This document shows positions 2,687-20,318 of a stretch of DNA of 20,318 bases, piece after piece. Source of the stretch: a virus; UHGV virus genome UHGV-0140021. One strand, 5' to 3'. The notes under the pieces were generated by a model that did no database searches, was not told the DNA's origin, and saw only the letters and a program-made list of their open reading frames with translations. Position 1 is the stretch's first letter. The number at the start of each line of letters is the position of its first letter. The translations under genes were made by a program, and so were the position numbers.

Positions 2687-4416
2687 AGAATTAAGAGATC
2701 ATCGTCCGGATCAAGAGATGAGAGGAAATCGCCAGGCTCTTTAAGCATTGCCCGTCCGATCGCCATTATCAGCGCCACCGCGCCGTCGATTTTATTTTCG
2801 TTCTGCTCCTTGATAGGCTTCACAACATCATCGTTCCCCGGCAGATATTTCCCCACCACGTTGCTGATACACCAGCTCATGATCGGGTTACCGTCGTGAT
2901 GAAAACGCCCAGACTCAATGGCTGCTTCCAGCTCTTTCATTGGGTCTGACATATTGGTGTAGTTCTGAACGATAGTGATCGGATTAAGACTTTCATCAGC
3001 CAGATCATGTGAAAGCCCCGTCGCGCCGAATGGGTCAATCGGAGACTCACTGACCGGGTTGAGTTTGTTTGCTGCTTTGGCCTCTTCAAGGATGTAGCGG
3101 TAATCCACTTCAGCGCCATCAGTAACTGTAAGCAGTTCCATTTCAACCCATTTCTGAAATCGCTCCGCAGTACGACGATCTTCATTCTTTTCAACGCTGA
3201 ATACTGTGTCGTAAGGAACCCAGAAGCGGGGAGCAACGCTGTAGTAATGTGTCTTGCCGTCAATTTCTCTGGTGAACAACCGCGCCATACTGTTCATATC
3301 CAGCTTGCGCGCCAGGTCGAAAGACAGAACACATGGCTGTCCTTCGAATTGCTCCAGCGTCAGTGTCTTATCCTCGCAGTTCTGCCAGGAAACCAGGTTG
3401 TAGAAAGCGGCACGGGCTGCAACCCAGATATTGAGGTGTTTGGTTTTAAATACGCCAGCCTGGCGAGCATTATTGATAGCACGCTGTTGCTGGCTTAACA
3501 GAAAGTCACGGTAAACCGAGACACCCATATTCGGGTTGGCCTTCTCAAGCACTTTAGGATCGGTCCAGTCATCCCCCTCGTCGACGGTATATATCACGCC
3601 GAACAATTCCTCATTCGGTACCGTGCCGTTAAGCATCTCAATCACTTCACGCCGTTTGTCGTAGCATGGACCCTCAATGTTGTAACCTGCTGTGGTGATC
3701 GCCCACATCAGCGGTTGTCGCCGCGCCCCCATACCCGTCAGCATTGTGGTGTAGAGCGAATCTGTTGGGTGTTCGTGATACTCGTCAACAATCGCACAGT
3801 GCGGTGAAGCGCCGTCCCCAGGGTTACCAATCAGCGGCTCAAAACGCGCGCCATCTTCTGGCCGGTTCAGGTTGGACGCATTAACTTCAATCCCGAACGC
3901 GTCCACCAGCATCGGGGTGCGCTTACACATCAGACGAGCTGGTCTGAATACTTCCCACGCCTGTTTTTCAGTTGTGGCCCCGGAATATACTTCAGCGCCA
4001 AACTCGTTATCACAGGTAAAACAGTACAGCGCCACACCCGCCGAAATGGCCGATTTCCCGTTTTTACGCGGTATCTCCGTGTAAACCTCGCGAAATCGTC
4101 GAAGCTTCGACCCTTTCTGGACCCAGCCAAAGGCGCAGCACACAATAAACAGTTGCCATGCCTCCAGAGTGATCGGCATCCGCTTGAATGCCCACTCTCC
4201 TTTTGTATGTGGCAACAACTGGATAAATTTCGCGGCCTTTTCTGCCATGTCTTTATCGAAGCGGTAACGAAATTTCTTACTCTTTTCAGCCGCCATGTCA
4301 TCGATATGACGCTGGCAGGCCTGAATAACAAACTGGCACGCCGGAATTTTCCCCCGCACAACGTTGCGGGCGTATTGATTCGCGGCGTTTACGTTGGGGT
4401 ACGATTTCCGGCTCAT
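2683..4416 (-). CDS. Terminase large subunit
   Basis: 577-aa ORF, ATG overlapping the TerS stop (ATGA); size and gene order (TerS-TerL-portal) diagnostic. Confidence 0.9.
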
Positions 4417-7179: not shown

Positions 7180-7363
7180 GGTCTCTCACCTCCGATAGTT
7201 CGGATGGCGCTGTGTGATGAAAGGAGGATCAGGCTTCACGGGCTGGATTTATCAACAATGCGTATCGAGGATGATTCCCGTGATCCTGAATCAGAACGGG
7301 CTCTGCGCAAGCGCCTGTCGGATTGGGTTATGAGCCGTCCGTCAGTGAGCCCTGAATATGAAA

Positions 7364-7385
7364 AAGGCCACCAGAAGGCAGCCTT
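7364..7385 (-). terminator. Weak hairpin-plus-U-run downstream of the 80-aa moron ORF
   Basis: AAGGC / GCCTT stem (5 bp) with 12-nt loop followed by TTT on the minus strand; weak. Confidence 0.25.
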
Positions 7386-7420
7386 AATAAATGTGGTGTA
7401 CCTATTTATTAATCAGATAG

Positions 7421-7663
7421 TTAAGACTCAAGATCAATTAAATAGCTATTCCCTTTAGACGTAATTCTATTCACTATCCAGCTGTCGTCACAATCAGACG
7501 TACTCTGCACAGCATTTACCAGACCCAACTCAGCGAGATCAGAAATAGCAAAATTCACCGCTTCCGCTGGAATGTGAGGAAGATCAGAAGATTGAATTGT
7601 TTCACGTGGTCCAAGAGCGCTTGCGCGACTCAGAGTTTCGATATGAACAGATGTTAATTTCAT
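7421..7663 (-). CDS. Hypothetical protein (80 aa), moron between the Q terminator and holin; possible small winged-helix protein
   Basis: ORF with AAGGCGG SD, bracketed by a candidate extended -10 promoter (TGTTACAAT, plus 7699-7707) and a downstream hairpin; lower GC than flanking genes. Confidence 0.5.
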   Translation of the reverse strand: MKLTSVHIETLSRASALGPRETIQSSDLPHIPAEAVNFAISDLAELGLVNAVQSTSDCDDSWIVNRITSKGNSYLIDLES

Positions 7664-7741
7664 TATGCCGCCTTTGTGTTGTCGTTTTGCTTGCGGCTAT
7701 TGTAACACATTGATTTTTACGTAGATTGAATGGCCTAGTGC

Positions 7742-7768
7742 AAAAAAAACCCGCTCGGTGGCGGGTTT
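7742..7768 (-). terminator. Rho-independent terminator downstream of the Q-like gene (tR'-like)
   Basis: Minus-strand read: ACCCGC-caccga-GCGGGT followed by eight T. GC-rich 5-6 bp stem, 6-nt loop, long U-run. Confidence 0.75.
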
Positions 7769-7778
7769 CTTAACTCTG

Positions 7779-7833
7779 AACATACAATGCCCATCGTTAA
7801 TGTCAAATATACACAAAAACGGCAACATTGCAA
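7779..7833 (-). promoter_or_regulatory. Candidate late promoter (pR'-like) between Q and the terminator
   Basis: Minus strand carries TTGCAA-16nt-TATATT and an overlapping TTGACA-16nt-TATGTT; either would initiate a short transcript ending at the terminator, as in lambda pR'-tR'. Exact -35/-10 assignment uncertain. Confidence 0.4.
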
Positions 7834-7849
7834 ACATCATGACGCTAAA

Positions 7850-8680
7850 TTACGCGATATTTATCACATCTTCACTTTTAGTCACCCGATTCAGTTGAGA
7901 GCTTGAATAACTCTCCTCCTGGAAACATTTGGTCACCAGGCTTTCATAGAATGGTTTCCAGCTATAACGCCACGTTCGGTCAGGCAGACTCGGCAACTCA
8001 GAAAAAACACCTCGATAGGCAACCGATGATTTTGGCCTGCTGTATCCCCGACCTTCACAGCGCTTACATTCTTTGTAAACCGGTACGCCCTGCAGTTCTG
8101 TCGCTTTACGGTCAATAGTCTTACCTGTGCCGCCGCACTGGCATCGCTTACTTAACTTTCCTGTGCCATGGCAGCGGGAACATAACGTATGATCAGTGTC
8201 AGTTACATCGCGCTTAACCTCAAAGTCAGATGGTGACTGTCTCAGGTCTTTTGCCCATTGTGGCAATCGCATTGTGTAATGACTTTTAGTCACGGTTTTA
8301 GTAGTTGTAAGCAACCCTTTACCACTACATTTTGGGCATGCCACGCTATCAGCGGCTGATGAGGAATAATCGTTATAGGCAAACCGGGCAAGAATACGCA
8401 TGCAGAGGGGAAACTTTTTCCCTGACGCTTTACGAATGGCCATGGGCGCATGCTCTTTCGCGTACTCCGTTAGCCAAGCTATTGACGCCTCCCTGTCCTG
8501 GCTGCTGATACCAGCTTTGCCCAGAAACATTGCCAGGCCTATCCCCGCATCGGCCTGAGTCATCCCCAGTGCAGCCATTACATCAGTAACCGTCAGTTGT
8601 TCACTGGCTGTCGCTCTGCTGGTATCTGATATGTGCATACCTTTCGGCGCAAAAAATTTCAGTACATTATCCAGGTTCAT
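7850..8680 (-). CDS. Antitermination protein Q-like
   Basis: 276-aa protein with several CxxC zinc-binding pairs (CPKC, CSRC, CQC, CKRC); last gene before the late promoter/terminator and lysis cassette; N-terminus resembles enterobacterial prophage Q proteins (from memory, not searched). Confidence 0.65.
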   Translation of the reverse strand: MNLDNVLKFFAPKGMHISDTSRATASEQLTVTDVMAALGMTQADAGIGLAMFLGKAGISSQDREASIAWLTEYAKEHAPMAIRKASGKKFPLCMRILARFAYNDYSSSAADSVACPKCSGKGLLTTTKTVTKSHYTMRLPQWAKDLRQSPSDFEVKRDVTDTDHTLCSRCHGTGKLSKRCQCGGTGKTIDRKATELQGVPVYKECKRCEGRGYSRPKSSVAYRGVFSELPSLPDRTWRYSWKPFYESLVTKCFQEESYSSSQLNRVTKSEDVINIA

Positions 8681-8695
8681 ACGGTCTCCATACGT

Positions 8696-9724
8696 TTAAG
8701 CTTTCGCAATTACGCCGATCGCCAGCGCCCGATCCATAAAACGCAGTAGCAGCTCAAGCTGCGTACCATGCTTCTGCTCGAATGCTGGTACATCGGCGTG
8801 TAACTCGTCGTGGCACTCTCTGCACAGAGGGATCACGAAGAGGTCATGGGCTTTTGTTGCTGTACCACCCATACCGTGCCCTACGATATGGTGCGGATCA
8901 TCTGCTGGCCGTCGGCAACACTCACAGGGTTGTGTTTTAACCCAGCGGGTGTACGTCTCATTTACCCAGCGGCGTCGCTTTGGCCTGAGCATGAAAGACT
9001 CTGGCGACTCCGGATCAACAGAGAGCGTTAGGATCTTCTTCGCCTTCTCCTGCACGAGGCTGGTTGCAGACGCGGAAGGCACAATGTCGCTTTCCCTCAT
9101 GACCGAGCGGATCTTCTCATCCGGAAGGCGTAGCCCCTTGTGCGCAACGCTTTCCGGAATAACATCAGCCAGGTCGTTTCTAACCATCCACCAGCACAGT
9201 TCCGGAAGCGTCAGGATATGCGACTCGGGAAAACCAGAATCACGCCGAATGACTTCCAGAATCCAGGATACCAGGTTTCCGGCCGCTATACCTGCAAGCT
9301 GTTCGGTATGCTGCCCCGACAAAGTGTGATCGCAATGCCAGCACAGGCGAATGCTTCCTGGTGGGTGCCGCATTGTTGTGAAGTTCTTGTCGTGCCACGT
9401 TGAATGTGGCCACTGGCATACAAACCGATTACTCAACCATTGCTCAAGGGAAGAAATCCCACCGGCACGCTGAATAACCCTCTCATTCTCGAAGACCTGA
9501 CGCATTACCGGATCATCAGCCAGCGGCTGAATGGCTGCCGGAACAGCCCCGGTACTGAATGACGCCATTTCTTCTGGTTCAGGCTCGAGCAGAACGCGAC
9601 CACGCATGAAGAGGTGCATCAGTTCCGCACCGGGACGGAACAGCACAATCCCCATACGATGGGCGATCTCGGGGGTAAGCAGAGCTCTCACGCGACCTGC
9701 CCCCTGGCAATGTGTTCTGCCCAC
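8696..9724 (-). CDS. DUF968-family protein (YdfU-like) with C-terminal HNH-type zinc-finger motif
   Basis: 342-aa ORF with GTG start; C-terminus CECCRRPADDPHHIVGHG...LCRECHDELH is HNH-like. Start overlaps the antirepressor 3' end, so the true start may be further downstream. Confidence 0.55.
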   Translation of the reverse strand: MGRTHCQGAGRVRALLTPEIAHRMGIVLFRPGAELMHLFMRGRVLLEPEPEEMASFSTGAVPAAIQPLADDPVMRQVFENERVIQRAGGISSLEQWLSNRFVCQWPHSTWHDKNFTTMRHPPGSIRLCWHCDHTLSGQHTEQLAGIAAGNLVSWILEVIRRDSGFPESHILTLPELCWWMVRNDLADVIPESVAHKGLRLPDEKIRSVMRESDIVPSASATSLVQEKAKKILTLSVDPESPESFMLRPKRRRWVNETYTRWVKTQPCECCRRPADDPHHIVGHGMGGTATKAHDLFVIPLCRECHDELHADVPAFEQKHGTQLELLLRFMDRALAIGVIAKA

Positions 9725-10371
9725 AGTCCACCAATCCAGCGCACGCCTTTCGCCGTGAAACGTGCCTGGCTGAATGCATGATTTGAGGTTACGGATGTGC
9801 CGGTTTTCACTTCAAAACGGCCCGCATCAATATGCTGATGCCGTGGGGTCATCGTTCCGCCAAGGCGATACATGATGTCGTTCTCAAGGAGGAATAACCG
9901 CAGATCTGGCTCTTTGGCCTTAAGCAGTTTTGCCACCTGGCGGAATGACATTGACCCACTGGCTGTACAGTACCGATCAACAAACGCTACCTTCGGCGCC
10001 GCGGCAGCCAGTTCGTTAGTCAACTGCTGTTTTTGTTCTGCAAGGTCAGCTGCAAGACGTAGGGCTTCAGAGAATGATTGAGGAATCGTCTGCTGCTGTG
10101 CCTGCTCAAGCTCCTGCCAGCGATCAACCAGACGCGCGGTAAACTCCGGCGACAGCTGCGCGACAACGATATAACTGTCCCGCTTCCCTATCAGATAAAC
10201 CGATACCGACTGATTGAGGTGATTTTTAACTTCCCCCATTGGGGGGAGTTCAATAACACCGCGCTCTGCCAGGCGTTCAATGGACCGTTTAACATGGTCA
10301 TGTCGTGATTCCACCAGCTCAGCAATATCGCTGCTGGACATGGTTAATGCTGTTGTTGCTAATTGGCTCAT
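9688..10371 (-). CDS. Phage antirepressor (Rha-like N-terminal domain, KilAC/ANT C-terminal domain)
   Basis: N-terminus ...SSDIAELVESRHDHVKRSIERL resembles Rha-family regulators; C-terminus ...AFVDRYCTASGSMSFRQVAKLL resembles the ANT/KilAC domain. Start chosen at ATG 10371 (MSQLATT) with GGAGA SD. Confidence 0.65.
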   Translation of the reverse strand: MSQLATTALTMSSSDIAELVESRHDHVKRSIERLAERGVIELPPMGEVKNHLNQSVSVYLIGKRDSYIVVAQLSPEFTARLVDRWQELEQAQQQTIPQSFSEALRLAADLAEQKQQLTNELAAAAPKVAFVDRYCTASGSMSFRQVAKLLKAKEPDLRLFLLENDIMYRLGGTMTPRHQHIDAGRFEVKTGTSVTSNHAFSQARFTAKGVRWIGGLWAEHIARGQVA

Positions 10372-10384
10372 ACTTTTCTCCATA

Positions 10385-10771
10385 TCAGGCGGCTGCACCC
10401 GCCGGTTCATATCTGCTGATCGTTATCTCTACCCGACCTTTCGGCACTACGGGTCCCCATTCCACCAGCATGCGCTTAATCTGGCTGTCGTCTTCCCAGA
10501 CACCCGCATGCGTCAGCGCGTCAAACAGGGCTTTGTTGTAATTATCGATATCCCGGCGGCGCGCATCCGGCGGGTACAGAGTGATTTCTACCGCTGCCAG
10601 TTCAGTCGATGGCTTCGGGAGACGTCGTAATTGCTCAATGATCGCCACGCAGGCAGCGCTCTGGTATTTACGAGCATCAGCGCTAATGAGGTGACGACCG
10701 GCCAGCGGCCCCTTATTAGGGGCGCGCCAGTACGTGTTCACGCTCGGAGGGAACGGGAGCACAAGTTTCAT
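10385..10771 (-). CDS. rusA: Crossover junction endodeoxyribonuclease RusA (Holliday junction resolvase)
   Basis: MKLVLPFPPSVNTYW... with DARRRDIDN and LFDALTHAGVWEDD motifs closely matching E. coli RusA; ATG overlaps the C5-MTase stop (ATGA); GGAGG SD. Confidence 0.9.
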   Translation of the reverse strand: MKLVLPFPPSVNTYWRAPNKGPLAGRHLISADARKYQSAACVAIIEQLRRLPKPSTELAAVEITLYPPDARRRDIDNYNKALFDALTHAGVWEDDSQIKRMLVEWGPVVPKGRVEITISRYEPAGAAA

Positions 10772-12702
10772 GCCACCTCCTGCTGTTGCACTGCACACAG
10801 TTCCGGAAGATTTGCCTCCACCAGCGCCCTGGCGAATGGTGGTGGTACCGCATTACCGCAGCGGGCTACCTGCTTATCTTTTGCATAGCGATTTCCACGG
10901 TAGTCCTGATCAATAACGTAACCATCCGGGAAGCCCTGCGCTTTGTAGAGTTCATGCGGCTGCAACATGCGCATTCCGATATCAACGATCTGGTATTTAA
11001 CCCCATCGATCGTTACCAGCCATTCATCGTCACTTTCCCCGCAATACGTCTCGAGAAATGTGCGTACCTCACCCACGTGTTGGCCACCAGCAGTGATTGT
11101 TGGCATTGGCACATCAAGGCGTTGCCCGTCGCGGCATGTTCCACGCAGTTTCACCAGATGAGAGGCAACTACCGCATGATGGTCGACAGTGGTCACTGAA
11201 TGCGCGGGTTCATCCATACTGACACCAGGCCCCGTATAGTTACCGCCGTAGTGTTTCGCCAGGAACGCGCTCACCGTCGCAAATTTATTTCCGCCTGCAG
11301 TAACGGTCCCCAGCGGGTTATCCAGTCGCAGCACACGCGGTTCTTGCCCAGGTCGTTCGCCATAACCCATCTGAATCAGCGTAGGCGTTACCGGTTGAGA
11401 TTTACCGCCACCACCAGCGGTGATGGTTGCGCTCGGTTCGTCTGCACGGTGGCCGACGCTGGCCCCAAACTGGCGGGCTATCACTGGCGCAACCAGACAG
11501 GCTCGGGATTGCTTCAGAATGGTATGAGCAGGTTTATCCAGCGGGCGCGGTTTCGCCTGGTATTCACTACCACCATTACCCGCCAGGAATGGCGTCAGTG
11601 CAGCCTCAACAATCCCGAGTGCATGCCCGTTCCCGCCCGGGCGTTTTGACGTGCCAGCGGTTACCGTCGGAACAGGTTCGGTAAGGGGCTGCCCGGTTGC
11701 GCCAGTGCGGAATTTTGTCAGGTGTGGAACGGCTAACGCGTAGCCGAGTTTTTTAGTAATGGTCTGTAATGGCTCATTCAGTGACTGTCCGCGAAAAGCG
11801 TCATACGCATTTTTTGAGCTCGTGTGGTTGCACTTCACAATAAACGGCGACGCACTTTCGATAACAAAGCGCTGTATGCCGCGCGCGATCCGCTTCAGAG
11901 TGTTCTCCGCCAGCGGTTTTTTGCGGTCGAAGATGGACAGGGCCGGAATATTCCAGTCGATACATTCCGCAGCGGTACGCCATGGCATCAGCCTGCCACT
12001 TTGCACCTCCAGAGACTTAGGATCCCCATGGGTAATAGCAGGCCACTGGATTGGGCAACCATCGCAACGCATAACCATGAAGAAGCGTTTGCGGATCGTC
12101 GGCGCGCCGTAATCACACGCACGTAGTTCGCGATAATCAACATCATATCCCAGCCCATCCACCAGCTTTTGTGCCTGCTCGCTACCTCTTTCGATAGACA
12201 GAAACTCACAAACCTCAGCCAGTGCCGGGTGATCAGCAGGAATGCCAGTGGACAGCATGCCGACAAATGCATTGAATGTTTCGCCAGTGCGGGCAGGATC
12301 CGGACGCATTTCATCGGCCAGCAGCGGTCCCCACGTTTTGAACTCTTCCACGTTCTCCAGCATCATCACGCGCGGTCGCTTTGCCAGTGCCCAACGCAGA
12401 ACAATCCAGGCCAGACCGCGTATCTCTTTTTTCACAGGCTTTGCGCCTTTTGCCTTCGAGAAGTGTCGGCAGTCCGGGCTAAACCATGCCAGTCCGACAG
12501 GATGACCTCCGGTGGCGGCTACCGGATCCACGTCAAATACGGATTCACAATAATGCAGTGTGTCCGGGTGGTTCGTCTTGTGCATCGCAATGGCGTTTTC
12601 GTCGTGGTTTATCGCAATATCCACGCTGCGCCCGATCGCCAGTTCAATACCCGTTGATGCGCCACCGCCACCAGCAAAGTTATCAACGATAATCTCACGC
12701 AT
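10768..12702 (-). CDS. DNA (cytosine-5)-methyltransferase, unusually long (644 aa) with a repeated TRD-like region
   Basis: C5-MTase motifs: I DNFAGGGG, IV SPDCRHFS (catalytic PC), VI ENV, VIII TIRKRFF, IX ELYKAQGFPDGY, X CGNAVPPP. A ~330-aa variable region holds six repeats of [DN]-x-P-x-x-T-[IV]-T(-A-G-G). Confidence 0.9.
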   Translation of the reverse strand: MREIIVDNFAGGGGASTGIELAIGRSVDIAINHDENAIAMHKTNHPDTLHYCESVFDVDPVAATGGHPVGLAWFSPDCRHFSKAKGAKPVKKEIRGLAWIVLRWALAKRPRVMMLENVEEFKTWGPLLADEMRPDPARTGETFNAFVGMLSTGIPADHPALAEVCEFLSIERGSEQAQKLVDGLGYDVDYRELRACDYGAPTIRKRFFMVMRCDGCPIQWPAITHGDPKSLEVQSGRLMPWRTAAECIDWNIPALSIFDRKKPLAENTLKRIARGIQRFVIESASPFIVKCNHTSSKNAYDAFRGQSLNEPLQTITKKLGYALAVPHLTKFRTGATGQPLTEPVPTVTAGTSKRPGGNGHALGIVEAALTPFLAGNGGSEYQAKPRPLDKPAHTILKQSRACLVAPVIARQFGASVGHRADEPSATITAGGGGKSQPVTPTLIQMGYGERPGQEPRVLRLDNPLGTVTAGGNKFATVSAFLAKHYGGNYTGPGVSMDEPAHSVTTVDHHAVVASHLVKLRGTCRDGQRLDVPMPTITAGGQHVGEVRTFLETYCGESDDEWLVTIDGVKYQIVDIGMRMLQPHELYKAQGFPDGYVIDQDYRGNRYAKDKQVARCGNAVPPPFARALVEANLPELCAVQQQEVA

Positions 12703-13576
12703 GGGTTACCCCCTGCATGCTGCCAACAAGACCACGCGCAATTGTAATAATTTCGCTGGTGGCCGTTCGTTCCAGCCAGAGTTGATTGATGTTGGCTTTC
12801 AGCTTGTTCTGCTGAGCCTCACTCAATACGTCAACGCCTTCCACCTGGTTAAACACCAGACCAACCTCTAGAGGCCAGATACGTGACTCAGTTTCCGATG
12901 GTATTACTGGTTCCTGGGCTGTCCGCACTGCAATTGTTTGCTCTTTACCAACAGCGAATTGAGCCAGCGCCATAAATTCCCGACCTTTTGCCTCCAGTTC
13001 TGTGCGGTTGATATAGCTGAACCGCTCACCACGCCACGACTTATCGAATACAGCTATGGCACCGGCAAAAAACGCGCTGGTGGGTTTCTGTTTTTCGTCA
13101 GCAGGTACAAACCACACAGGCAGATCGAACCCAATGCGCCCGCGAATGAATACAATGTGATCGGCATCTTCCGGCCACCACGTTTCACTCGGCGCGGCTT
13201 TTATCAGGAATACATAGCGACCGCCCTTCTCGCGCTGGGCTGCTGCGTATTTCATGATGTGCGTCATACCAGTGATCGCCTGTTTCTCGTGGTACTGCGA
13301 ACGGCTATACGGTGGGTTGCCATAGCCAGCGCCACCCAGTTCTGCCAGACGTTCAGACCAGTCCTGCGTCAGCGCGTTATCTTCGGCGGTGTACCATGCC
13401 GGGCATTTCGCGTTGTCGGCGTCAGCAAACAAGTCCAGAACTAATGGACCAAATAGCGCGTTGATCCCCCAAAAAAGCAGATCCGGTGTTCGCCACTGAT
13501 CGCCAACTTCTTTCAATTCGTGGGCTGGTTGGCTACGTAGTTCCGCCAGCGACTGGCAATATTTGTTTAACGTCAT
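12695..13576 (-). CDS. Phage N6-adenine DNA methyltransferase (Dam-like family) with ~110-aa C-terminal extension
   Basis: QWRTP...DLFADADNAKCPAWYT...GNPPYS motifs typical of phage Dam-family N6-adenine MTases; start overlaps the upstream ORF stop and its stop overlaps the C5-MTase start. Confidence 0.8.
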   Translation of the reverse strand: MTLNKYCQSLAELRSQPAHELKEVGDQWRTPDLLFWGINALFGPLVLDLFADADNAKCPAWYTAEDNALTQDWSERLAELGGAGYGNPPYSRSQYHEKQAITGMTHIMKYAAAQREKGGRYVFLIKAAPSETWWPEDADHIVFIRGRIGFDLPVWFVPADEKQKPTSAFFAGAIAVFDKSWRGERFSYINRTELEAKGREFMALAQFAVGKEQTIAVRTAQEPVIPSETESRIWPLEVGLVFNQVEGVDVLSEAQQNKLKANINQLWLERTATSEIITIARGLVGSMQGVTHA

Positions 13577-13935
13577 CCTCTGAACCCCTCTGGAATCGTT
13601 GTATCAACCGGACCAAAAGCCATCACATCGCGCTTTTTCGCACCCCAGTCAGCGCGTTTAGGCCGTCCCTTCTGCTCCCAGCGGGTAGCGCTTTGCAGAT
13701 AGCTCTCGAATTTCTTCGGGCCGAACAGCGTTTCCGGGCGCATGTACTGGTACTGCTCGTCGTTCTCGTGCCAGTGCTCATGCTTCAGGTCGATAACCAG
13801 TTGCAGGTCTGCAACGCTGTATCCCTCACGCAGTCGGGCACGGATGTTCTCCAGGGATGTTTTTGATTTCTGATACCGGGATCCGCTGATCTTGTTCAAA
13901 TGGGTCAGAACCAAAATTGCCTGATCAGTAATCAC
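13573..13935 (-). CDS. C-terminal portion of an O-like replication protein (conserved phage C-terminus, RPETLF...KFE.YL motif); possibly a fragment of a disrupted gene
   Basis: 120-aa ORF from a GTG with no recognisable SD; its frame is open upstream to 14016 and so almost abuts the stop of the O-like N-terminal ORF (14007). Confidence 0.5.
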   Translation of the reverse strand: MITDQAILVLTHLNKISGSRYQKSKTSLENIRARLREGYSVADLQLVIDLKHEHWHENDEQYQYMRPETLFGPKKFESYLQSATRWEQKGRPKRADWGAKKRDVMAFGPVDTTIPEGFRG

Positions 13936-14006
13936 GACTTCAGGGTCTGGTTGCGCCGCAACCGGACAAGAGGGTTTTGAAGTTACTTGTGGATCTTGTT
14001 TTGATT

Positions 14007-14408
14007 TTACTGACGGTCAAAACCGCCGTTTTTGACGGATTTCGACGGGTCAGTTTTTGAGGCGTCAAATTTTGATGCGTCAGATTTTGACGTGTCAGAA
14101 TCTGACAGTTGAGAAAATGCGGCAGCCTGAAGTTTCGCCACATTCAGGCGGTACACGTTCGAAGCATTACGGTTACCATTACGGCGCTGTGTACGCGTGA
14201 GCCAGCCATCTTTTTCAAGCTTAGCGATTGCCGTTCTGATAGTGCTCGGCCCTGCGCCAAGCTGGCGAGCAATAGTTTCAATGGACGGCCAGCACACGCC
14301 CTCATCGCTGCTGAAATCAGCGAGGCGGGCCATGATCGCGACACTAGACAACTTCATGCCCGACGCCGCGCAACCATCCCATACGTAGCCGGTTAATTTA
14401 GTGCTCAT
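14007..14408 (-). CDS. Replication initiator O-like protein, N-terminal HTH DNA-binding part; 3' end encodes the ori iterons
   Basis: N-terminus MSTKLTGYVWDG...CWPSIETIARQLGAGPSTIRTAIAKLEKDGWL is a typical replication-initiator winged-helix; C-terminal repetitive peptide (SDSDTSKSDASKFDASKTDPSK) is coded by the 15-bp iterons; SD GGGAGA upstream. Confidence 0.65.
   Translation of the reverse strand: MSTKLTGYVWDGCAASGMKLSSVAIMARLADFSSDEGVCWPSIETIARQLGAGPSTIRTAIAKLEKDGWLTRTQRRNGNRNASNVYRLNVAKLQAAAFSQLSDSDTSKSDASKFDASKTDPSKSVKNGGFDRQ
14025..14114. repeat. Replication origin iterons (about five 15-bp direct repeats, TTTTGAnGCGTCAnn) embedded in the O-like gene, with an adjacent AT-rich stretch (13975-14010)
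   Basis: TTTTGA-type hexamers recur at 14030, 14040, 14055, 14070, 14085 and 14100 (15-bp period for the last five); each unit carries TGAnnnnTCA inverted symmetry. Same layout as ori-lambda inside gene O. Confidence 0.65.
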
Positions 14409-14417
14409 GATCGTCCG

Positions 14418-14744
14418 TTATCTCCCTGAACTTTTGCCTGAAATGCTCAAGTGGGCTGAAGCATTCGTGCGGGTAGCCATCACGCAGATAGATAACGCGC
14501 TGTGTTTCTGGCTCCCAGCGGATAACACGGACTGGCACTCCACGGTGATCTTTGAACCTTCGGTTAAGTTCGCGCACAGGCGTTTCGCCCTCCGGTTGTA
14601 GACCCCCACAATTGAAACCGCCCTACTGTGGTTACACGGAACCAAGCGGTTTGATAATCTGCGTTCATACCGAAACAACGGAGTACCCGAAACCGGGATC
14701 ATCCTGAGTTGCGGTAGACGGTTAAAAGCCGTTAAACTGCTCAT
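14418..14744 (-). CDS. Hypothetical basic protein (108 aa); uncertain gene
   Basis: ATG 6 nt after the CII-like stop with GGAG SD; its stop lies 9 nt before the O-like ATG. Weakened by many rare codons (AGG, AGA, CGG, CTA) and a competing plus-strand ORF (14401..14601). Confidence 0.25.
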   Translation of the reverse strand: MSSLTAFNRLPQLRMIPVSGTPLFRYERRLSNRLVPCNHSRAVSIVGVYNRRAKRLCANLTEGSKITVECQSVLSAGSQKHSALSICVMATRTNASAHLSISGKSSGR

Positions 14745-14749
14745 GCGGA

Positions 14750-15301
14750 TTATTTCTCCATACTCGAAGAGTTGTTCGCCAAGGCGCCCGGAGCTGCACA
14801 CTCGCGGGCGTCACTCTTTTCAGCGACACAAAAAACTCGATAAAGAAGCGCTACGTGCTCCTGGAACTTCGCAATAACCTGATAGCTGTTTTCCTCAATC
14901 TGAGCGCGCTCATCTGCGTCAATCACCCCATCAGCCGTGGCTTTACGTACAAAATTAGAATGACGGCCTATCCATTCGATGGACTCCATCAGGCGCTGGT
15001 TGATATCGGCGTTATCCAGATCATCAACATCTGCCAGCGGTACAAATACGCCCTGAGAATGGCGCGCAACGGCATCAGCGATATGAGTTGAACCACCAGC
15101 ACGTTGTAAAACCATTGCCCAGCCCAGCGGGAAGATCTGATCGCCGTCAACACGAAGGCGGTTAAACAATGCGTTCTCTGTCACGCCCAACCATTCCGCC
15201 GCCTCGGCATAACCACCAGGTAGATCGGTGATCGTTTTTTTTATCGCCGCCACCAGCCAGGCTGGCTGACGTTCGACTTTCCAAATAGGTTCGTTACCCA
15301 C
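14750..15301 (-). CDS. CII-like / YdaT-like transcriptional regulator (HTH)
   Basis: Position immediately downstream of cro; HTH-like segment DLPGGYAEAAEWLGVTENALFNRLR. Start trimmed to GTG 15301 (AAGGGG SD) because the longer ORF overlaps cro; start remains uncertain. Confidence 0.45.
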   Translation of the reverse strand: MGNEPIWKVERQPAWLVAAIKKTITDLPGGYAEAAEWLGVTENALFNRLRVDGDQIFPLGWAMVLQRAGGSTHIADAVARHSQGVFVPLADVDDLDNADINQRLMESIEWIGRHSNFVRKATADGVIDADERAQIEENSYQVIAKFQEHVALLYRVFCVAEKSDARECAAPGALANNSSSMEK

Positions 15302-15344
15302 GGTTAACCCCTTAATTCTGTGGTTATAAAAATCAGCTCGTCTG

Positions 15345-15545
15345 CTACTGTTTAGGGTAAATGTCAGGACGAAGATCAGATTTGCTGATAATCCCAGCAG
15401 TTGTTTCCTCCAGCTTTTTAGCCAAGGAAAAACCTGCCTTTTTGTAGCCATTGAAAACTAAACGCAGGTAGCCAGGCGTGGAACCTACGCTTCCAGCTAA
15501 TTCGCCTTGCTGCTCTTTAGTTAAAGAGTCCCAATACTCTTTCAT
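15345..15545 (-). CDS. Cro-like repressor (66 aa)
   Basis: Small ORF divergent from cI, ATG at 15545 with AGGAGG SD, start overlapped by a 17-bp operator. Assignment is mainly positional. Confidence 0.6.
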   Translation of the reverse strand: MKEYWDSLTKEQQGELAGSVGSTPGYLRLVFNGYKKAGFSLAKKLEETTAGIISKSDLRPDIYPKQ

Positions 15546-15633
15546 AATATGTACCTCCTGTGTACATATTACACGAAAGAAATGAACCCACAAGGTACTT
15601 GTACCATAGAGGTACACATTGTTTAATTTGCTG
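15546..15633. promoter_or_regulatory. Immunity control region (oR-like): divergent promoters and 17-bp operators TGTACC-N5-(G/T)GTACA
   Basis: Operators at 15550-15566 (TGTACCTCCTGTGTACA) and 15600-15616 (TGTACCATAGAGGTACA), extra GTAC half-site at 15595. Candidate -10 TAATAT for cro on the minus strand and TTTAAT (15622-15627) just upstream of the cI ATG. Confidence 0.6.
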
Positions 15634-16308
15634 ATGAAAACTATCCAGGAAATCAGGCGATTAAACGCCCGAAAATTGAGAGATGGTGTTGGGGGTAATA
15701 GCTACTTCGCTAACATGATCGATCGTGAACCTACACAAACCAGCCGGTTTATGGGTGAAGGTGCCACCAAAGGTATTGGTGACGCTATGGCAAGGCATAT
15801 CGAAAAATGTTTTGACTTGCCTCAAGGTTGGCTAGATACCGAACATCAAACTACCAACATTGCTAAATCACCCGACGTTTCAGACGTTAAAAGATCAATT
15901 ACGATGGTCCCGGTTATATCCTGGGTGCAAGCCGGAGCATGGACGGATGCTGGTTATGCAGAGGTAGATTTGAGTAGTGTAGAAACATATCCTTGTCCCG
16001 TTCCGTGCGGGCCAATGACTTATATCTTACGCGTCATTGGTGATTCAATGATCGATGAGTATCGTCCTGGCGATATGATTTTTGTAGATCCAGAGGTTGC
16101 AGCTTCTCATGGCGATGATGTTATTGCTTTAATGCATGATTCTGGCGAAACGACGTTTAAACGATTAATAGAAGATAGTGGCGAAAAGTTTCTTAAAGCT
16201 TTAAACGCCAACTGGCCAGAGCCATATATTAGGATCAATGGTAATTGCTCGATTATTGGCACCGTTGTTTTCTCAGGAAAACCACGACGGCACAGGCATA
16301 AGCCTTAA
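15634..16308 (+). CDS. cI-type prophage repressor with LexA-like S24 peptidase domain
   Basis: C-terminal domain has the GDSM serine motif and downstream lysine (TFKRL); divergent from cro across the operator region. ATG 15634 chosen (ORF track starts at TTG 15619); no SD, consistent with a leaderless or short-leader transcript. Confidence 0.85.
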   Translation: MKTIQEIRRLNARKLRDGVGGNSYFANMIDREPTQTSRFMGEGATKGIGDAMARHIEKCFDLPQGWLDTEHQTTNIAKSPDVSDVKRSITMVPVISWVQAGAWTDAGYAEVDLSSVETYPCPVPCGPMTYILRVIGDSMIDEYRPGDMIFVDPEVAASHGDDVIALMHDSGETTFKRLIEDSGEKFLKALNANWPEPYIRINGNCSIIGTVVFSGKPRRHRHKP

Positions 16309-16317
16309 CCCATCATC

Positions 16318-16345
16318 ACAAACCTGCTTCGGCAGGTTTTTTTAT
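16318..16345 (+). terminator. Rho-independent terminator of cI
   Basis: AAACCTGC-TTCG-GCAGGTTT followed by TTTTTTT, immediately after the cI stop. Confidence 0.85.
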
Positions 16346-16347
16346 CC

Positions 16348-16380
16348 TTGACAATGTACCCTCAAGGTACATAATGTACC
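16348..16380 (+). promoter_or_regulatory. pL-like early promoter with overlapping operators (oL)
   Basis: TTGACA (16348-16353), 16-nt spacer, CATAAT (16370-16375). Operator TGTACCCTCAAGGTACA (16355-16371) sits between -35 and -10, plus overlapping GGTACATAATGTACC (16366-16380); same half-site as the oR sites. Confidence 0.65.
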
Positions 16381-16661
16381 TATACGAAACAGCGAACAGG
16401 CAGGACGCCCACGAAGTAGCCGCCGGTGACGTATGAATAACCGGATGATTCGCTGACAGGTGTCTTCGGGAGGGGTTACGGGCTGGAGTGACTACCAGCG
16501 TCGACAGCTCTATCCGACGAAACGGAACCGTCTAACCCGCGGTTGTCGGTGAAAAGTACCGTAGGGATGCCAGCTAGTCACTGGCCCCCGCCCGAAGATA
16601 CCTACCACCGCGCCTGATGTGGTTAAAAGCAGGCTAAAGCAATAACAAGTAACTCCATGTT

Positions 16662-16712
16662 CTGGCGGACCGGTGTTTTCCCGTGTATTTCCGGTAACCG
16701 CCAGCCTTTTTC
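16662..16712 (+). terminator. Intrinsic terminator inside the early-left leader
   Basis: CTGGCGGACCGG (16662-16673) pairs with CCGGTAACCGCCAG (16691-16704): 12 bp with a 2-nt bulge and 17-nt loop, followed by CCTTTTTC. Confidence 0.6.
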
Positions 16713-16842
16713 AGATCACAACATGAAAGCGCACTCCTTCACTTACCAGTTATGGGTGACAGGTGTGAAACAAGCGGAGTGCGCTTCCAGTTGAGTATGG
16801 AGAAAGTTCGGCGGTGGCAGCCGCCTTAACGAGGGTAAAACC

Positions 16843-17214
16843 ATGAGTAATGACCGCATGACCGTAGTGCCAGATTTTCTTGGCGAACTGGATGCCGGCG
16901 TGTTCATGAACAAAATCGCGGCAGCACTTAACACCACCGCGCTTGGCGTTCTGAACAACGGCAACAAAGGCAAAGTAGTCCTCACCTTTGATTTTGAGCG
17001 CATGGGTAATTCCGTTGAAGAGAAGCGCGTCAAGATCAAGCACAAGCTGAACTACAGCACCCCAACACCGCGTGGTAAAGCCTCCGAAGAGGACACAACC
17101 GAAACCCCGATGTGGGTCAACAAAGGCGGGAAGCTCACCATCCTGCAGGAAGATCAGGGTCAGCTGTTCGGGATCACTGGCGCGGTGGATGGAAAGCTTA
17201 AAGCGGCTCAGTGA
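16843..17214 (+). CDS. Hypothetical early protein (123 aa), first gene of the early-left operon; possibly YfdP-like
   Basis: ORF with GAGGG SD 9 nt upstream; first gene after the leader; size and context similar to CPS-53 yfdP (recall only). Confidence 0.55.
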   Translation: MSNDRMTVVPDFLGELDAGVFMNKIAAALNTTALGVLNNGNKGKVVLTFDFERMGNSVEEKRVKIKHKLNYSTPTPRGKASEEDTTETPMWVNKGGKLTILQEDQGQLFGITGAVDGKLKAAQ

Positions 17215-17270
17215 TCCGCAACAACAAACTCACTGATACCACTTTGATCATCAGTTAATAAGGAATTTTT

Positions 17271-18098
17271 ATGTCTCAGTTAGACAGCGGTACCTTCAAG
17301 CAGGTCAAAGACCTGGTTCTTTCCGGTTATCACCTGAATGATATTCATGGCCTGGCTTGCCCGACCGCATTACTGCCAGAGGGTACTGGCGTTGAAAGCC
17401 TCGAGCGCTTTTCTCTGGAACGTTTCCGCTTTCGTGGCGAAATGACCACAACCAGTATTGACGACTTCGCACGTTATTCTAAAGGTTACGCCAGCGACAG
17501 TGAACCAGCTCGTTGCTTCATTGACGCTGACAACATGACCGCCCGTTCAGTGTTCAACATCGGCACCCTGGATAATCCTGGTCACGCCGATAACGTTGCT
17601 TCAATCACCCTGAAGAAAACCGCCCCGTTCCGCGCGTTACTGCAGATCGATGGTCAACGTCTGAAACAAAAGCAAATTGCTGAATGGCTGGAAGACTGGA
17701 GCGATTACCTGCTGGCGTTTGATGCTGATGGCAATACGATGCAGATTTCCCAGGCGGCTCAGGCTGTGCGTCGTATCACTATTCAGCAAGCAACACAGCA
17801 GGACCATGAAACTGGTGATTTCGCTGGTAAAAAATCGCTGATGCAAAGCGTTGAAGCAAGCAGCAAAGACGTAATGCCTGTGGCGTTCGAGTTCAAATGT
17901 ATGCCGTATGAAGGCCTGGGCGAACGCCGCTTTAGCTTGCGTAACAGCCTGCTGACTAGCGATGAACCCTGCTTTGTTCTGCGCATTGTCCAACTTGAAG
18001 CTCAGGAAGAAGCGATCGCCAACGAATTCCGCGATTTGCTGATCAGCAAGTTCGAAGGCGAATCAGTGGAAACTTTCATCGGTAACTTTAAAGCCTAA
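17271..18098 (+). CDS. YfdQ-like protein (DUF2303 family), 275 aa
   Basis: AAGGAA SD; length nearly identical to E. coli CPS-53 YfdQ (274 aa) and followed by an HD-domain gene as in the yfdQ-yfdR arrangement. Homology inferred from size and context, not searched. Confidence 0.55.
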   Translation: MSQLDSGTFKQVKDLVLSGYHLNDIHGLACPTALLPEGTGVESLERFSLERFRFRGEMTTTSIDDFARYSKGYASDSEPARCFIDADNMTARSVFNIGTLDNPGHADNVASITLKKTAPFRALLQIDGQRLKQKQIAEWLEDWSDYLLAFDADGNTMQISQAAQAVRRITIQQATQQDHETGDFAGKKSLMQSVEASSKDVMPVAFEFKCMPYEGLGERRFSLRNSLLTSDEPCFVLRIVQLEAQEEAIANEFRDLLISKFEGESVETFIGNFKA

Positions 18099-18110
18099 TT
18101 GCTCTGCATT

Positions 18111-18137
18111 AAATCCCCGGCGCCGCGGGGATTTATT
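18111..18137 (+). terminator. Hairpin with partial U-run after the YfdQ-like gene (possible terminator or attenuator)
   Basis: AAATCCCCG-gcgc-CGGGGATTT followed by ATT; GC-rich stem. Confidence 0.4.
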
Positions 18138-18226
18138 GAAGCGTAATTCCATTAATTATCGCCAACCGGCGAGGGATTCGTGCAACCAAAATCTGCGCGG
18201 TGCAGCGCGCCAATATGGAGAAAGAC

Positions 18227-18766
18227 ATGAGCTACATTCAGACATTTTCCGGTAAAAAATTTAACTACCTGACCGCCACAATCGACGATATCGATGTTGA
18301 GGATATCGCGACTGCTCTTTCCAACATCTGTCGATTCGCTGGGCATCTCCCAGAGTTCTACAGTGTGGCCCAGCACTCTGTGCTTGTAAGCCAGATTGTG
18401 CCGCCAGAGTTCGCCTTTGAAGCGCTAATGCACGACGCTGCGGAGGCATATTGCCAGGATATTCCGGCCCCGCTCAAAGCCTTGCTGCCTGACTACCAGC
18501 GCATGGAAACTTATATTGATGGTCTTATCCGCTTTAAATTCGGTATCCAGCTTGAGCAAGCTGCCGTCGTGAAATATGCCGATCTAACCATGTTAGCTAC
18601 CGAGCGCCGTGATCTGGAAATCGATGACGGTTCGAAGTGGGAAATTCTCGAAGGTATTCCCTGCTCTGATCTCGTTCAGGTTATTCCTCTCCGTCCTGGT
18701 CAAGCCTATGGCCTGTTCATGAATCGCTTTAACGAACTGGTGGAGCTGCGCCAATGCGCCGCATGA
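18227..18766 (+). CDS. HD-domain phosphohydrolase, YfdR-like (5'-deoxynucleotidase family)
   Basis: 178 aa from ATG 18227 (GGAGAAAGAC SD); conserved H...HD residues (AQHS, LMHDAAE) typical of HD-domain nucleotidases; same length as E. coli YfdR. Confidence 0.7.
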   Translation: MSYIQTFSGKKFNYLTATIDDIDVEDIATALSNICRFAGHLPEFYSVAQHSVLVSQIVPPEFAFEALMHDAAEAYCQDIPAPLKALLPDYQRMETYIDGLIRFKFGIQLEQAAVVKYADLTMLATERRDLEIDDGSKWEILEGIPCSDLVQVIPLRPGQAYGLFMNRFNELVELRQCAA

Positions 18767-18929
18767 AGGTAAAAGAACTCGTAGCGGAGGCTTTTGCCTC
18801 CGTTACTGAATTGCCACCAAAGCATGCACCGCTTATGCGCGAAGTCGCCACCAGACTGGAAGCTACGTTCGCAGCATTAAAAGAGTCTCTGGTGCAACTG
18901 GAACAGGAACGTAAAGGTAAAACGCCATG
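18753..18929 (+). CDS. Small hypothetical protein (~58 aa)
   Basis: Hand-translated ORF MRRMKVKELVAEAF...; overlaps the YfdR-like 3' end and its stop overlaps the next ATG (ATGA). Below the ORF-track size cutoff. Confidence 0.35.
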
Positions 18930-19181
18930 ACCGTATTTGAATATCTCCAGGCTCATCCGAATACCACCAGCGGTGAAATCGCCAAAGGTATGAACAAAAA
19001 GACACCCGCGGTCGCTGGCGCATTATCGCAACTCTATGGCACCGGCCGGATCGTGAAGTCTGGTGTTCGCAAGGGCATACCAACATACCGTGTTAACGAT
19101 ATGCCGTTTGGGTGCAGTAACAGCTTAACCATGATGTTTAACCAGCTATTGAATAGCGCCAGACAGGGAGCAGCCCAATGA
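18927..19181 (+). CDS. Hypothetical protein (84 aa)
   Basis: ORF in operon context with overlapping start and stop; no recognisable motifs. Confidence 0.5.
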   Translation: MTVFEYLQAHPNTTSGEIAKGMNKKTPAVAGALSQLYGTGRIVKSGVRKGIPTYRVNDMPFGCSNSLTMMFNQLLNSARQGAAQ

Positions 19182-19564
19182 AAGCACTCAACAAACAGGC
19201 ATACCGAGCTGATGGCGGTGATATTGGAGCAGGGCGTCTCAAAGAGATAGCCGACAACGCATATGGCGATGAAGAAAAGCGCTGGCTGGCGCAACGAGTG
19301 CTGGCGCTGCTGGATGAGAATCTCCAACTACAGCGCGACAAAGATTCGCTTGAAGCAGTTGCGATTGCTATGCGTGACGATATGCGGGAGGCGCGTGAAA
19401 AGCTGGAAGCCGCAGAGAAGCGCGTAGCAGACCACCGTAAGGTGCTAAACAGCCTTGCAGCTGTAGCCCGTCGCTATCTTCCTGATTATGACGAACATCC
19501 TGAAATTCAGGCCGCTGACGAATTACTTGAGAGCGCCGCTGGCATTGGCGTGAAGGGGGAGTGA
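19178..19564 (+). CDS. Hypothetical coiled-coil protein (128 aa), possibly YfdS-like
   Basis: Charged helical sequence; start overlaps the upstream stop. Size close to CPS-53 YfdS (120 aa); not verified. Confidence 0.5.
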   Translation: MKALNKQAYRADGGDIGAGRLKEIADNAYGDEEKRWLAQRVLALLDENLQLQRDKDSLEAVAIAMRDDMREAREKLEAAEKRVADHRKVLNSLAAVARRYLPDYDEHPEIQAADELLESAAGIGVKGE

Positions 19565-20026
19565 ATGCAGATTTCACCAATCACCTTAAAAGTTGCCAAA
19601 GAATTTGTGGCGAAACATCACCGTCACAACAAACCGCCAACAGGACATAAATTTAGTATCGGTCTGAAAAATTCTGATGGTGAATTGATTGGCGTAGCTA
19701 CCGCAGGAAGACCAATAGCCAGGAATTTCGATGATGGCCTTACTCTGGAGGTTAACCGTACTTGCACAACTGGAGAGCGCAACGCTAACAGCGCTCTTTA
19801 TGGAGCAATCTGGCGGGCAGCAAAGGCTATGGGTTATCAGCGCTGCATAACCTACACCCAAGCGGATGAATCCGGGGCATCGCTGCGCGCGGCTGGTTTT
19901 GTCCGGGTTAAGGAACTTCCCGCGAGAAAAGGGTGGGCAGCATCAAGCGTTGCACTGAAAGATAAGCGAGACCCGGTAGGAAATGGTGGTGTTACACGCG
20001 TTCTTTGGGAAATAAGGAGAAGGTAA
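19565..20026 (+). CDS. Hypothetical protein (153 aa)
   Basis: ORF starting immediately after the upstream stop (GGGGGAGTGA ATG); no confidently recognised domain. Confidence 0.5.
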   Translation: MQISPITLKVAKEFVAKHHRHNKPPTGHKFSIGLKNSDGELIGVATAGRPIARNFDDGLTLEVNRTCTTGERNANSALYGAIWRAAKAMGYQRCITYTQADESGASLRAAGFVRVKELPARKGWAASSVALKDKRDPVGNGGVTRVLWEIRRR

Positions 20027-20318
20027 TGGAAAAAATAACCAATGAGCAGTTAGATAGCCTGATTAAATCAGCGGTAAATTCTTCTGGTCCATTGCCTCAT
20101 GACGAGAAATTCTCACAGATAATTTCAGCATTACGAGAATTGCGTACTCATCGTAATTTAATTAACGAACGGGGAAATTTCTCTAAATCAACTAACAACC
20201 ACCCGTCGCACGGTCCTGTATCACTCGATCGCCTGCACCAAATACGCGACCACCTGCAGCATGATACCCAGTACTCAAACGGCGGGAACAGAGCTTACAT
20301 TCTCGCAGATATGTTGAA
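20026..20318 (+). CDS. Hypothetical protein, 5' partial (continues beyond window end); AT-rich gene
   Basis: ATG overlaps the upstream stop (TAATG); frame open for 97 codons to the window edge (MEKITNEQLDSLIKSAVNSS...); visibly more AT-rich than neighbouring genes. Confidence 0.5.
   Translation, partial: MEKITNEQLDSLIKSAVNSSGPLPHDEKFSQIISALRELRTHRNLINERGNFSKSTNNHPSHGPVSLDRLHQIRDHLQHDTQYSNGGNRAYILADML

Follow-up and report, generated by a model that had tools for sequence, protein, structure and literature searches.

A predicted early-left operon with yfdP, yfdQ and yfdR homologs in a lambdoid prophage, most likely of Citrobacter freundii

Gene content and control of the operon

The virus genome UHGV-0140021, analysed here over its full length of 20,318 nucleotides (the window), contains at positions 16843-20026 seven closely packed open reading frames (ORFs) on the + strand, which encode proteins of 123, 275, 188, 58, 84, 128 and 153 residues. 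A first-pass annotation made from the letters of the sequence had listed these ORFs, likened them to the yfdP-yfdQ-yfdR-yfdS-yfdT cluster of the Escherichia coli prophage CPS-53 and proposed that they interfere with host replication; all seven are present on the strand and at the sizes it gave. Each ORF has PHROG family support (E-values between 4e-25, for the 84-residue protein, and 1.9e-103), and we therefore regard the seven as genes and not as chance ORFs. In an NCBIfam scan, nothing was found for six of the seven.

We compared the window ORFs by BLASTP with the proteins YfdM through TorI of CPS-53 in E. coli K-12. The first gene (16843-17214, + strand) encodes a 123-residue homolog of YfdP with 59% identity to the K-12 protein over its full length (E 2e-48) and matches to phrog_204 (1e-41) and, on an identical contig, PF27127; this homology and its position directly upstream of a DUF2303 gene place it in the YfdP family. 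The DUF2303 gene itself (17271-18098, + strand) encodes a YfdQ homolog of 275 residues that aligns end to end with K-12 YfdQ (57% identity, E 2e-111) and matches phrog_210 (1.9e-103) as well as PF10065 (2.3e-65), the latter with 220.9 bits against a cutoff of 26.6 bits and over profile positions 28-269 of 269.

The third gene encodes a YfdR homolog, an HD-domain phosphohydrolase of the 5'-deoxynucleotidase type (phrog_318, 7.5e-97), with 68.5% identity to K-12 YfdR over 178 residues (E 2e-92). The longest ORF (18200-18766, 188 residues) begins with GTG at 18200; however, the homology to YfdR begins at the ATG at 18227, which is preceded by the ribosome-binding site GGAGA, and gene callers on identical contigs give 179 residues. 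Thus, the gene almost certainly starts at ATG 18227 and spans 18227-18766 on the + strand. H69-D70, E73, D78 and D119 of the HD site are invariant in the window protein, YfdR and YfbR, and the first histidine, H50, lies in the motif 'SVAQHS', which lines up with its counterpart in the solved homolog Atu1052. The H...HD signature noticed in the first pass is therefore kept on alignment together with its metal-binding residues, and full-length homology together with a complete H...HD...D tetrad assigns the protein to the YfdR-type HD phosphohydrolases. The site, including the equivalents of E73 and D78, is common to the HD-domain 5'-deoxynucleotidases YfbR and Atu1052 (PDB 2gz4); by contrast, overall identity to YfbR is only ~20%, and the Pfam YfbR-like profile scores 17.2 bits, below its cutoff of 25.9.

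In CPS-53 (NC_000913.3, 2473604-2476178), the homologs of the three genes occur in the same order and orientation and with similar spacing. The matches to YfdP, YfdQ and YfdR proposed in the first pass are thus borne out by end-to-end homology and by synteny, and we consider it very probable that the module is a yfdP-yfdQ-yfdR early operon.

Upstream of the operon lies an immunity region. Between cro and cI, three operator-type palindromes, at 15550, 15583 and 15600 and with 0-2 mismatches, make up OR (15550-15616). They are followed on the + strand by the gene for a CI-type repressor of 229 residues (15619-16308) with an S24 (LexA-like) autocleavage domain (Pfam Peptidase_S24, 7e-25; phrog_4 transcriptional repressor, 4.5e-46), and cI ends in an intrinsic terminator-like hairpin (16320-16339, + strand) with an 8-bp stem and a 4-nt loop, followed by TTTTATCC. 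The promoter pL (16348-16375, + strand) consists of TTGACA, a 16-nt spacer and CATAAT and agrees with the consensus at 11 of 12 positions. The two operators of OL (16355-16391) lie over the pL spacer, the -10 element and the start site; the site at 16355 is the perfect palindrome TGTACCCTCAAGGTACA, and the second, at 16375, has two mismatches. The palindrome TGTACC-N5-GGTACA has five sites in the window versus 0.56 expected, a number reached in 0 of 100 shuffles. Control of pL by the repressor, as claimed earlier, is well supported from the sequence by this near-consensus promoter with overlapping operators shared with OR. In such a circuit, DNA damage would lead to cleavage of CI and firing of pL, and the operon would be expressed early.

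A long untranslated leader of ~460 nt (16383-16842, + strand) separates pL from yfdP. Its minimum free energy is -170 kcal/mol, and it folds more stably than shuffled sequences (z = -3.28), in agreement with its earlier description as structured. A comparison of the leader with Rfam gave nothing at the gathering threshold and chance-level matches only at E<=1; similarly, no N-like antiterminator gene was evident at the pL-yfdP leader. The leader segments common to E. coli relatives are only the promoter-distal ones at about 16603-16720 and 16790-16843. Conservation of the leader with CPS-53 was considered and rejected, i.e. the two cannot be aligned and K-12 is without the leader.

Leader length varies among relatives. 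E. coli EC2001 (L002, 4267-5936) has an inserted IS5-family element and an ORF for a ClpX-type zinc-finger protein, and some IMG/VR relatives that share the repressor have 350-600 nt more between cI and yfdP. In prophages of E. coli Nissle 1917 and its relatives, the leader segment at ~16603-16843 is followed by rdgC and other genes replacing yfdP-yfdQ-HD. The presence of rdgC and other genes at this place indicates that alternative cassettes are exchanged at the slot behind the shared leader.

Behind the HD gene, successive genes meet at a 13-nt overlap, ATGA, ATGA, TGA-ATG and TAATG. Such overlapping and abutting junctions are consistent with translational coupling, and the small ORFs described earlier as coupled do have them. 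Moreover, the operon extends past 20026: the ATG within TAATG opens a frame that leaves the window end (20026-20318, + strand; phrog_6144, 3.7e-7). To read the remaining operon, we used metagenome contig L004, which is 100% identical to window positions 7271-20318 (13,048 bp); contigs L003 and L005 are one indel apart from the window. The protein of the partial gene has 118 residues in L004 and 308 residues in L003. The operon remainder (L003-L005) contains one or two unknown ORFs, a gene for a Rv2179c-like DEDD 3'-5' exonuclease (3.6e-74) and one for a PrtN/excisionase-like protein.

Phage group, Chi sites and recombination genes

The nearest YfdQ proteins are those of Citrobacter freundii (97-98% identity), which is most likely the host of the prophage. 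At the DNA level, the window is similar to ST64B, 118970_sal3, φNP, LLS/Eeyore/Flotzy and SfV. In LLS, ST64B (sb35-sb37) and φNP the same yfdP/yfdQ/HD trio is found, with about 78-81% DNA identity over the trio. The presence of the trio in this phage group is already published: the early-left operon of phage LLS, for which ST64B and φNP are nearest, has the trio and no recombination (Rec) module (PMC12315714, 2025).

The other strand of the window encodes, by Pfam and PHROG matches, Cro, CII, a DUF4222 protein, an O-like initiator, a Dam-type methyltransferase (12695-13576), a C5-type methyltransferase (10768-12702), an antirepressor, a Q-like antiterminator, an endolysin and the large terminase. 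The Dam-type enzyme, which lies on the other side, is like YfdM of CPS-53 (80% identity). CPS-53 has lost cI, cro, cII, pL, the operators and the long leader, all of which the window keeps. We regard this K-12 prophage as a decayed relative from which the immunity region was lost.

Phage lambda (Red/Gam) and P22 (Erf/Abc) carry their recombination genes at the same genome place, in a pL operon that is flanked by the immunity region on one side and by the excision genes on the other. By contrast, no Exo, Beta/Erf/Sak-type annealase, Gam/Abc2 or SSB was detected by Pfam or PHROG in the window ORFs or in the operon remainder. The earlier statement that exo/bet/gam-like genes are lacking is thus correct for the window and, because the remainder was read on an identical contig, extends to the whole operon. 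The DEDD exonuclease is the only nuclease of the early-left operon. A lambda-type Rec module, taken as at least an annealase (Beta/Erf/Sak/Rad52-type) that is usually joined by an exonuclease, a RecBCD inhibitor or an SSB, is lacking.

The Chi octamer GCTGGTGG, counted in both orientations, occurs 16 times in the 20.3 kb of the window. Fourteen copies lie on the cro-to-lysis strand, where they appear as CCACCAGC at 3903, 6170, 7117, 9188, 10311, 10462, 10818, 11084, 11411, 12159, 12668, 15093, 15250 and 18964, and the two opposite copies (GCTGGTGG) are at 12755 and 13076. In 500 dinucleotide-preserving shuffles, the two orientations averaged 0.54 and 0.30 copies, and no shuffle gave more than 4; moreover, CCACCAGC is the most frequent single octamer of the window. 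From the gene order we infer that RecBCD entering at the right chromosome end would meet the 14 sites in their active orientation, as it does in LLS. The phage is without a Red/Erf/Gam-type module and probably relies on host RecBCD acting at co-oriented Chi sites.

In both respects, i.e. the missing Rec module and abundant Chi sites co-oriented toward the right arm, the window phage agrees with the LLS functional type group. It differs from the group in its probable Citrobacter host and in its cargo, to which an XF1762/Mom-like gene found in 0 of 80 relatives is added. LLS was, moreover, reported to have no recombination gene in the nin region (PMC12315714), in which the window phage has a gene for a RusA-type Holliday-junction resolvase (10385-10771, - strand; PF05866 on an identical contig). 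RusA is the sole recognisable recombination-related gene of the window and lies outside the early-left operon.

In total, we put at about three in four the probability that this is an early-left operon, driven from pL, in a lambdoid prophage of the SfV/ST64B/φNP/LLS type.

The description of the cluster as intact holds for the cluster itself and fails for the prophage as a whole, in which the O-like replication gene (13573-14408, - strand) is frameshifted. Its iteron-like region has lost 22 bp between direct repeats (CCGTCAG), which leaves two ORFs of 133 and 120 residues; in the near-identical contigs L003 (6281-7138) and L005 the gene is whole (285 residues). Beyond the operon remainder, the end of the prophage (L003, 14602-15596) carries on the opposite strand a gene for a 175-residue SocA/Panacea-domain protein and one for an unannotated partner of 153 residues, a pair that looks like a toxin-antitoxin type. 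It is followed by host genes, i.e. those for a cupin protein, zur, csbD, dinF and lexA. A truncated tRNA-dihydrouridine synthase fragment present there in an E. coli relative suggests integration at dusA.

The YfdP-YfdQ pair and the genes behind it

The single window YfdQ protein was used to find 80 IMG/VR loci whose YfdQ proteins are 84-99% identical to it. Among these close loci, a YfdP homolog is encoded in 79 (the exception is cut at a contig end) and an HD homolog in 76. A distant set consisted of six DUF2303 representatives with 36-40% identity, for five of which the upstream DNA was present. Each of the five lies in a phage early region and has a PF27127 YfdP gene directly against or overlapping the DUF2303 gene, and an HD gene was found beside the DUF2303 gene in none of them. 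The deeply conserved unit is the YfdP-YfdQ pair, with mosaic downstream genes.

The identity of the HD protein among relatives flips between ~97% and ~70% independently of YfdQ identity, and we therefore place a mosaic breakpoint in the spacer between yfdQ and the HD gene. This spacer of 128 nt (18099-18226, + strand) is predicted to fold into three hairpins (z = -2.28) and is conserved to K-12 CPS-53, and two of the three hairpins retain their pairing although both sides have changed. The spacer may act in attenuation or in processing.

DUF2303 is a large family of uniform length with at least 1394 representatives at the 50% identity level. The only solved relative is PDB entry 9o7m, 'YfdQ Protein' (E 4.5e-40 with the single sequence and 3.4e-87 with a profile), which contains 36 chains of a 274-residue DUF2303 protein. 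Given this number of chains in the one solved structure, a large homo-oligomer is the probable form of YfdQ, and the structure should show the fold and perhaps the function. No paper associated with 9o7m was found in the collection searched. Similarly, a search of the PDB, 9o7m included, gave no YfdP-like chain at E<=10, and a literature search for YfdP gave nothing on function.

The four genes between the HD gene and position 20026 are all on the + strand. The 58-residue protein (18754-18930; phrog_12248, 7e-34) has a homolog in 51 of the 80 close loci. The 84-residue winged-helix-like protein (18927-19181; phrog_1687 'MarR family', 4e-25), which matches the N-terminus of YfdN weakly (E 2e-4), has one in 39. 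The 128-residue Ead/Ea22-like coiled-coil protein (19178-19564; phrog_8171, 4e-28; Pfam PF13935, 2.2e-7, 31.9 bits against a cutoff of 27 bits) recurs in a single locus and the 153-residue protein (19565-20026) in none. This last protein belongs to the XF1762 family (NCBIfam NF045478, XF1762_fam, 1.5e-59, 200 bits against 50) and is Mom-like (phrog_1384 'Mom-like DNA modification protein', 2.5e-41); with the Pfam Mom profile (PF25680) it scores 27.0 bits against a cutoff of 27.1 and covers profile positions 3-118 of 202 only. It may provide a further DNA-modification function alongside the Dam- and C5-type methyltransferases.

At this place, CPS-53 has yfdS and yfdT, for which the window has instead the genes for the 58-residue, winged helix-turn-helix, Ea22-like and Mom-like proteins. 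The first-pass annotation had likened the operon to the whole five-gene cluster; for these four ORFs, the comparisons do not bear out a match to YfdS or YfdT. BLASTP of the four proteins against YfdS and YfdT gave E > 0.7, six-frame tblastn with YfdS and YfdT over the window, L003 and L004 gave no match at E<=1, DUF551 (the YfdS domain) is absent from the window and downstream operon proteins, and the PHROGs of YfdS and YfdT differ from those of the downstream ORFs. Moreover, YfdS and YfdT homologs are each found in 0 of the 80 close loci. The 308-residue downstream protein was tried as a YfdT ortholog and rejected: phrog_5117 and phrog_60 are common to the two proteins, but different profile segments are matched. 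Because the downstream ORFs match neither YfdS nor YfdT, the likeness to CPS-53 is one of yfdP-yfdQ-yfdR and not of the five-gene cluster. The genes after the HD gene are instead inferred to be interchangeable 'ea22-region' cargo.

Function of the trio

The best-supported reading is that of an early-left operon of an ordinary kind, from a phage group already known and in good preservation in the window copy. Within this operon, YfdP and YfdQ would work together as one unit, and we lean towards the HD protein being primarily a nucleotide phosphohydrolase, i.e. an enzyme that would act on deoxynucleoside monophosphates (dNMPs) and so reshape the nucleotide pool. Given its 68.5% identity to YfdR, the HD protein may in addition bind DnaA domain I. 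The HD family is found in 341 phage records, some of them from virulent phages that infect Caulobacter, Bacillus or Rhizobium, and this distribution across phages of unrelated hosts favours a general role in nucleotide metabolism over a DnaA-specific one.

Several points weigh against this picture. The frameshift in the O-like gene may put in doubt that the prophage in the window copy completes a lytic cycle; alternatively, it may be an assembly or population variant. The role given to the Chi sites relies on Citrobacter RecBCD recognising the E. coli Chi octamer. The AlphaFold 2 model of YfdP (predicted local distance difference test (pLDDT) score of 79.6) gave no informative fold match, and that of YfdQ (pLDDT 91.8) no fold relative outside its own family. 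Finally, the nucleotidase role of the HD protein is drawn from its family membership. 5'-Deoxynucleotidase activity and binding to DnaA domain I are reported only for E. coli YfdR (PMC4776307), the nucleotide affinities of which are much below those of YfbR and the function of which was called elusive (PMC4776307, quoting Zimmerman et al. 2008).

A first alternative is that the operon interferes with host replication, a hypothesis that, like the trio in this phage group, is already published. In this scenario the YfdR homolog, expressed from pL, binds DnaA domain I and, together with YfdQ and the small downstream proteins, blocks initiation at oriC in favour of the phage. The statement in the first-pass annotation that YfdR binds DnaA and that overexpressed yfdQRST inhibits initiation is correct: YfdR binds DnaA via Phe46 of domain I, and multicopy yfdQRST blocks initiation (PMC4776307). 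Multicopy yfdQRS or yfdQRT inhibits initiation in vivo as well as in vitro, and the authors themselves suggested an ancestral phage role, citing orf29-31 of SfV (PMC4776307). The window HD protein is 68.5% identical to YfdR, and a YfdQ homolog is present. However, the minimal inhibitory set is yfdQ and yfdR plus yfdS or yfdT, with yfdP dispensable, and yfdQR alone gave no suppression (PMC4776307). Of the gene set of Noguchi and Katayama 2016, yfdQ and yfdR are present; with no homolog of YfdS or YfdT found in the window, the full operon or the 80 related loci, the published replication-inhibition set is incomplete in the operon. Moreover, inhibition was observed only on multicopy or overexpression, deletion was without phenotype and the authors allow for an artefact, and neither YfdR nor DnaA was strongly bound by YfdQ, YfdS or YfdT (PMC4776307). 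The spread of the HD family across phages of unrelated hosts and the occurrence of YfdP-YfdQ without an HD gene similarly point to other primary functions. Thus, the likeness to CPS-53 stands for yfdPQR, and its extension to a host-replication-interference module is an extrapolation with one required component missing. We regard this alternative as unlikely and consider it doubtful that expression of the operon from pL would measurably inhibit DnaA-dependent host initiation.

YfdP-YfdQ is a very widespread two-gene cassette of phage early regions, to which the YfdR-type HD protein was recruited in enterobacterial phages. A broader proposal, more speculative still, is that the trio, fired from pL on induction, would be a dedicated host-takeover device that stops DnaA-dependent initiation and/or drains dNMP pools without YfdS/YfdT; the phages concerned would be those whose recombination depends on host RecBCD and Chi.

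It is also very unlikely, in our view, that YfdP and YfdQ provide an unrecognised recombination or DNA-end function, such as annealing, end binding or the modulation of RecBCD, in place of the Rec module. yfdP and yfdQ open the pL operon, at the position of the lambda Rec genes, and rdgC occupies the same slot behind the shared leader in related prophages. In distant loci, a weak Rad52_Rad22-type protein is encoded directly after the pair (L090) and an RNase_T-type exonuclease just before it (L087), and the DEDD exonuclease is encoded in 51 of the 80 close loci; moreover, a yfdQ deletion is reported to be weakly sensitive to methyl methanesulfonate, as cited in PMC4776307. However, the models of YfdQ and YfdP have no likeness to annealase, Gam, Abc2, SSB, RdgC or RexA folds, and the candidate reading of YfdQ as an RdgC/RexA-like DNA-binding protein was rejected on the same grounds. 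The heavy Chi loading argues that host RecBCD is used and not blocked, and phage ArgO145 carries the trio besides a complete four-function Rec module, which makes it unlikely that the trio is a hidden recombination system (PMC12315714).

Equally improbable is an anti-defence or superinfection-exclusion cassette in which, for example, the HD protein degrades a signalling or modified nucleotide and a YfdP/YfdQ assembly sequesters a host or phage factor: such cassettes typically have this early, promoter-proximal place beside the immunity region, recombination of the HD gene is independent of that of yfdPQ, a Mom-like/XF1762 protein is encoded nearby and two DNA methyltransferases elsewhere in the phage, and YfdQ production in a CPS-53 host altered the production of another phage (preprint 10.1101/413146), but PADLOC matched none of the operon proteins and no known anti-defence fold was found for the YfdP and YfdQ models.

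Under the reading that we favour, i.e. the ordinary early-left operon of a lambdoid prophage, the window presents a clean, fully controlled form of a trio otherwise studied only as a promoter-less remnant in K-12. With repressor, operators, pL, leader and complete frames, the window phage or the inducible phages LLS, ST64B and φNP would be a better system than CPS-53 for asking whether YfdR-type proteins interfere with DnaA during phage development and what role the ubiquitous YfdP-YfdQ pair has. Moreover, the operon and its Chi sites extend the lambdoid strategy of carrying no Rec module and a genome rich in Chi to a prophage that most likely resides in Citrobacter.

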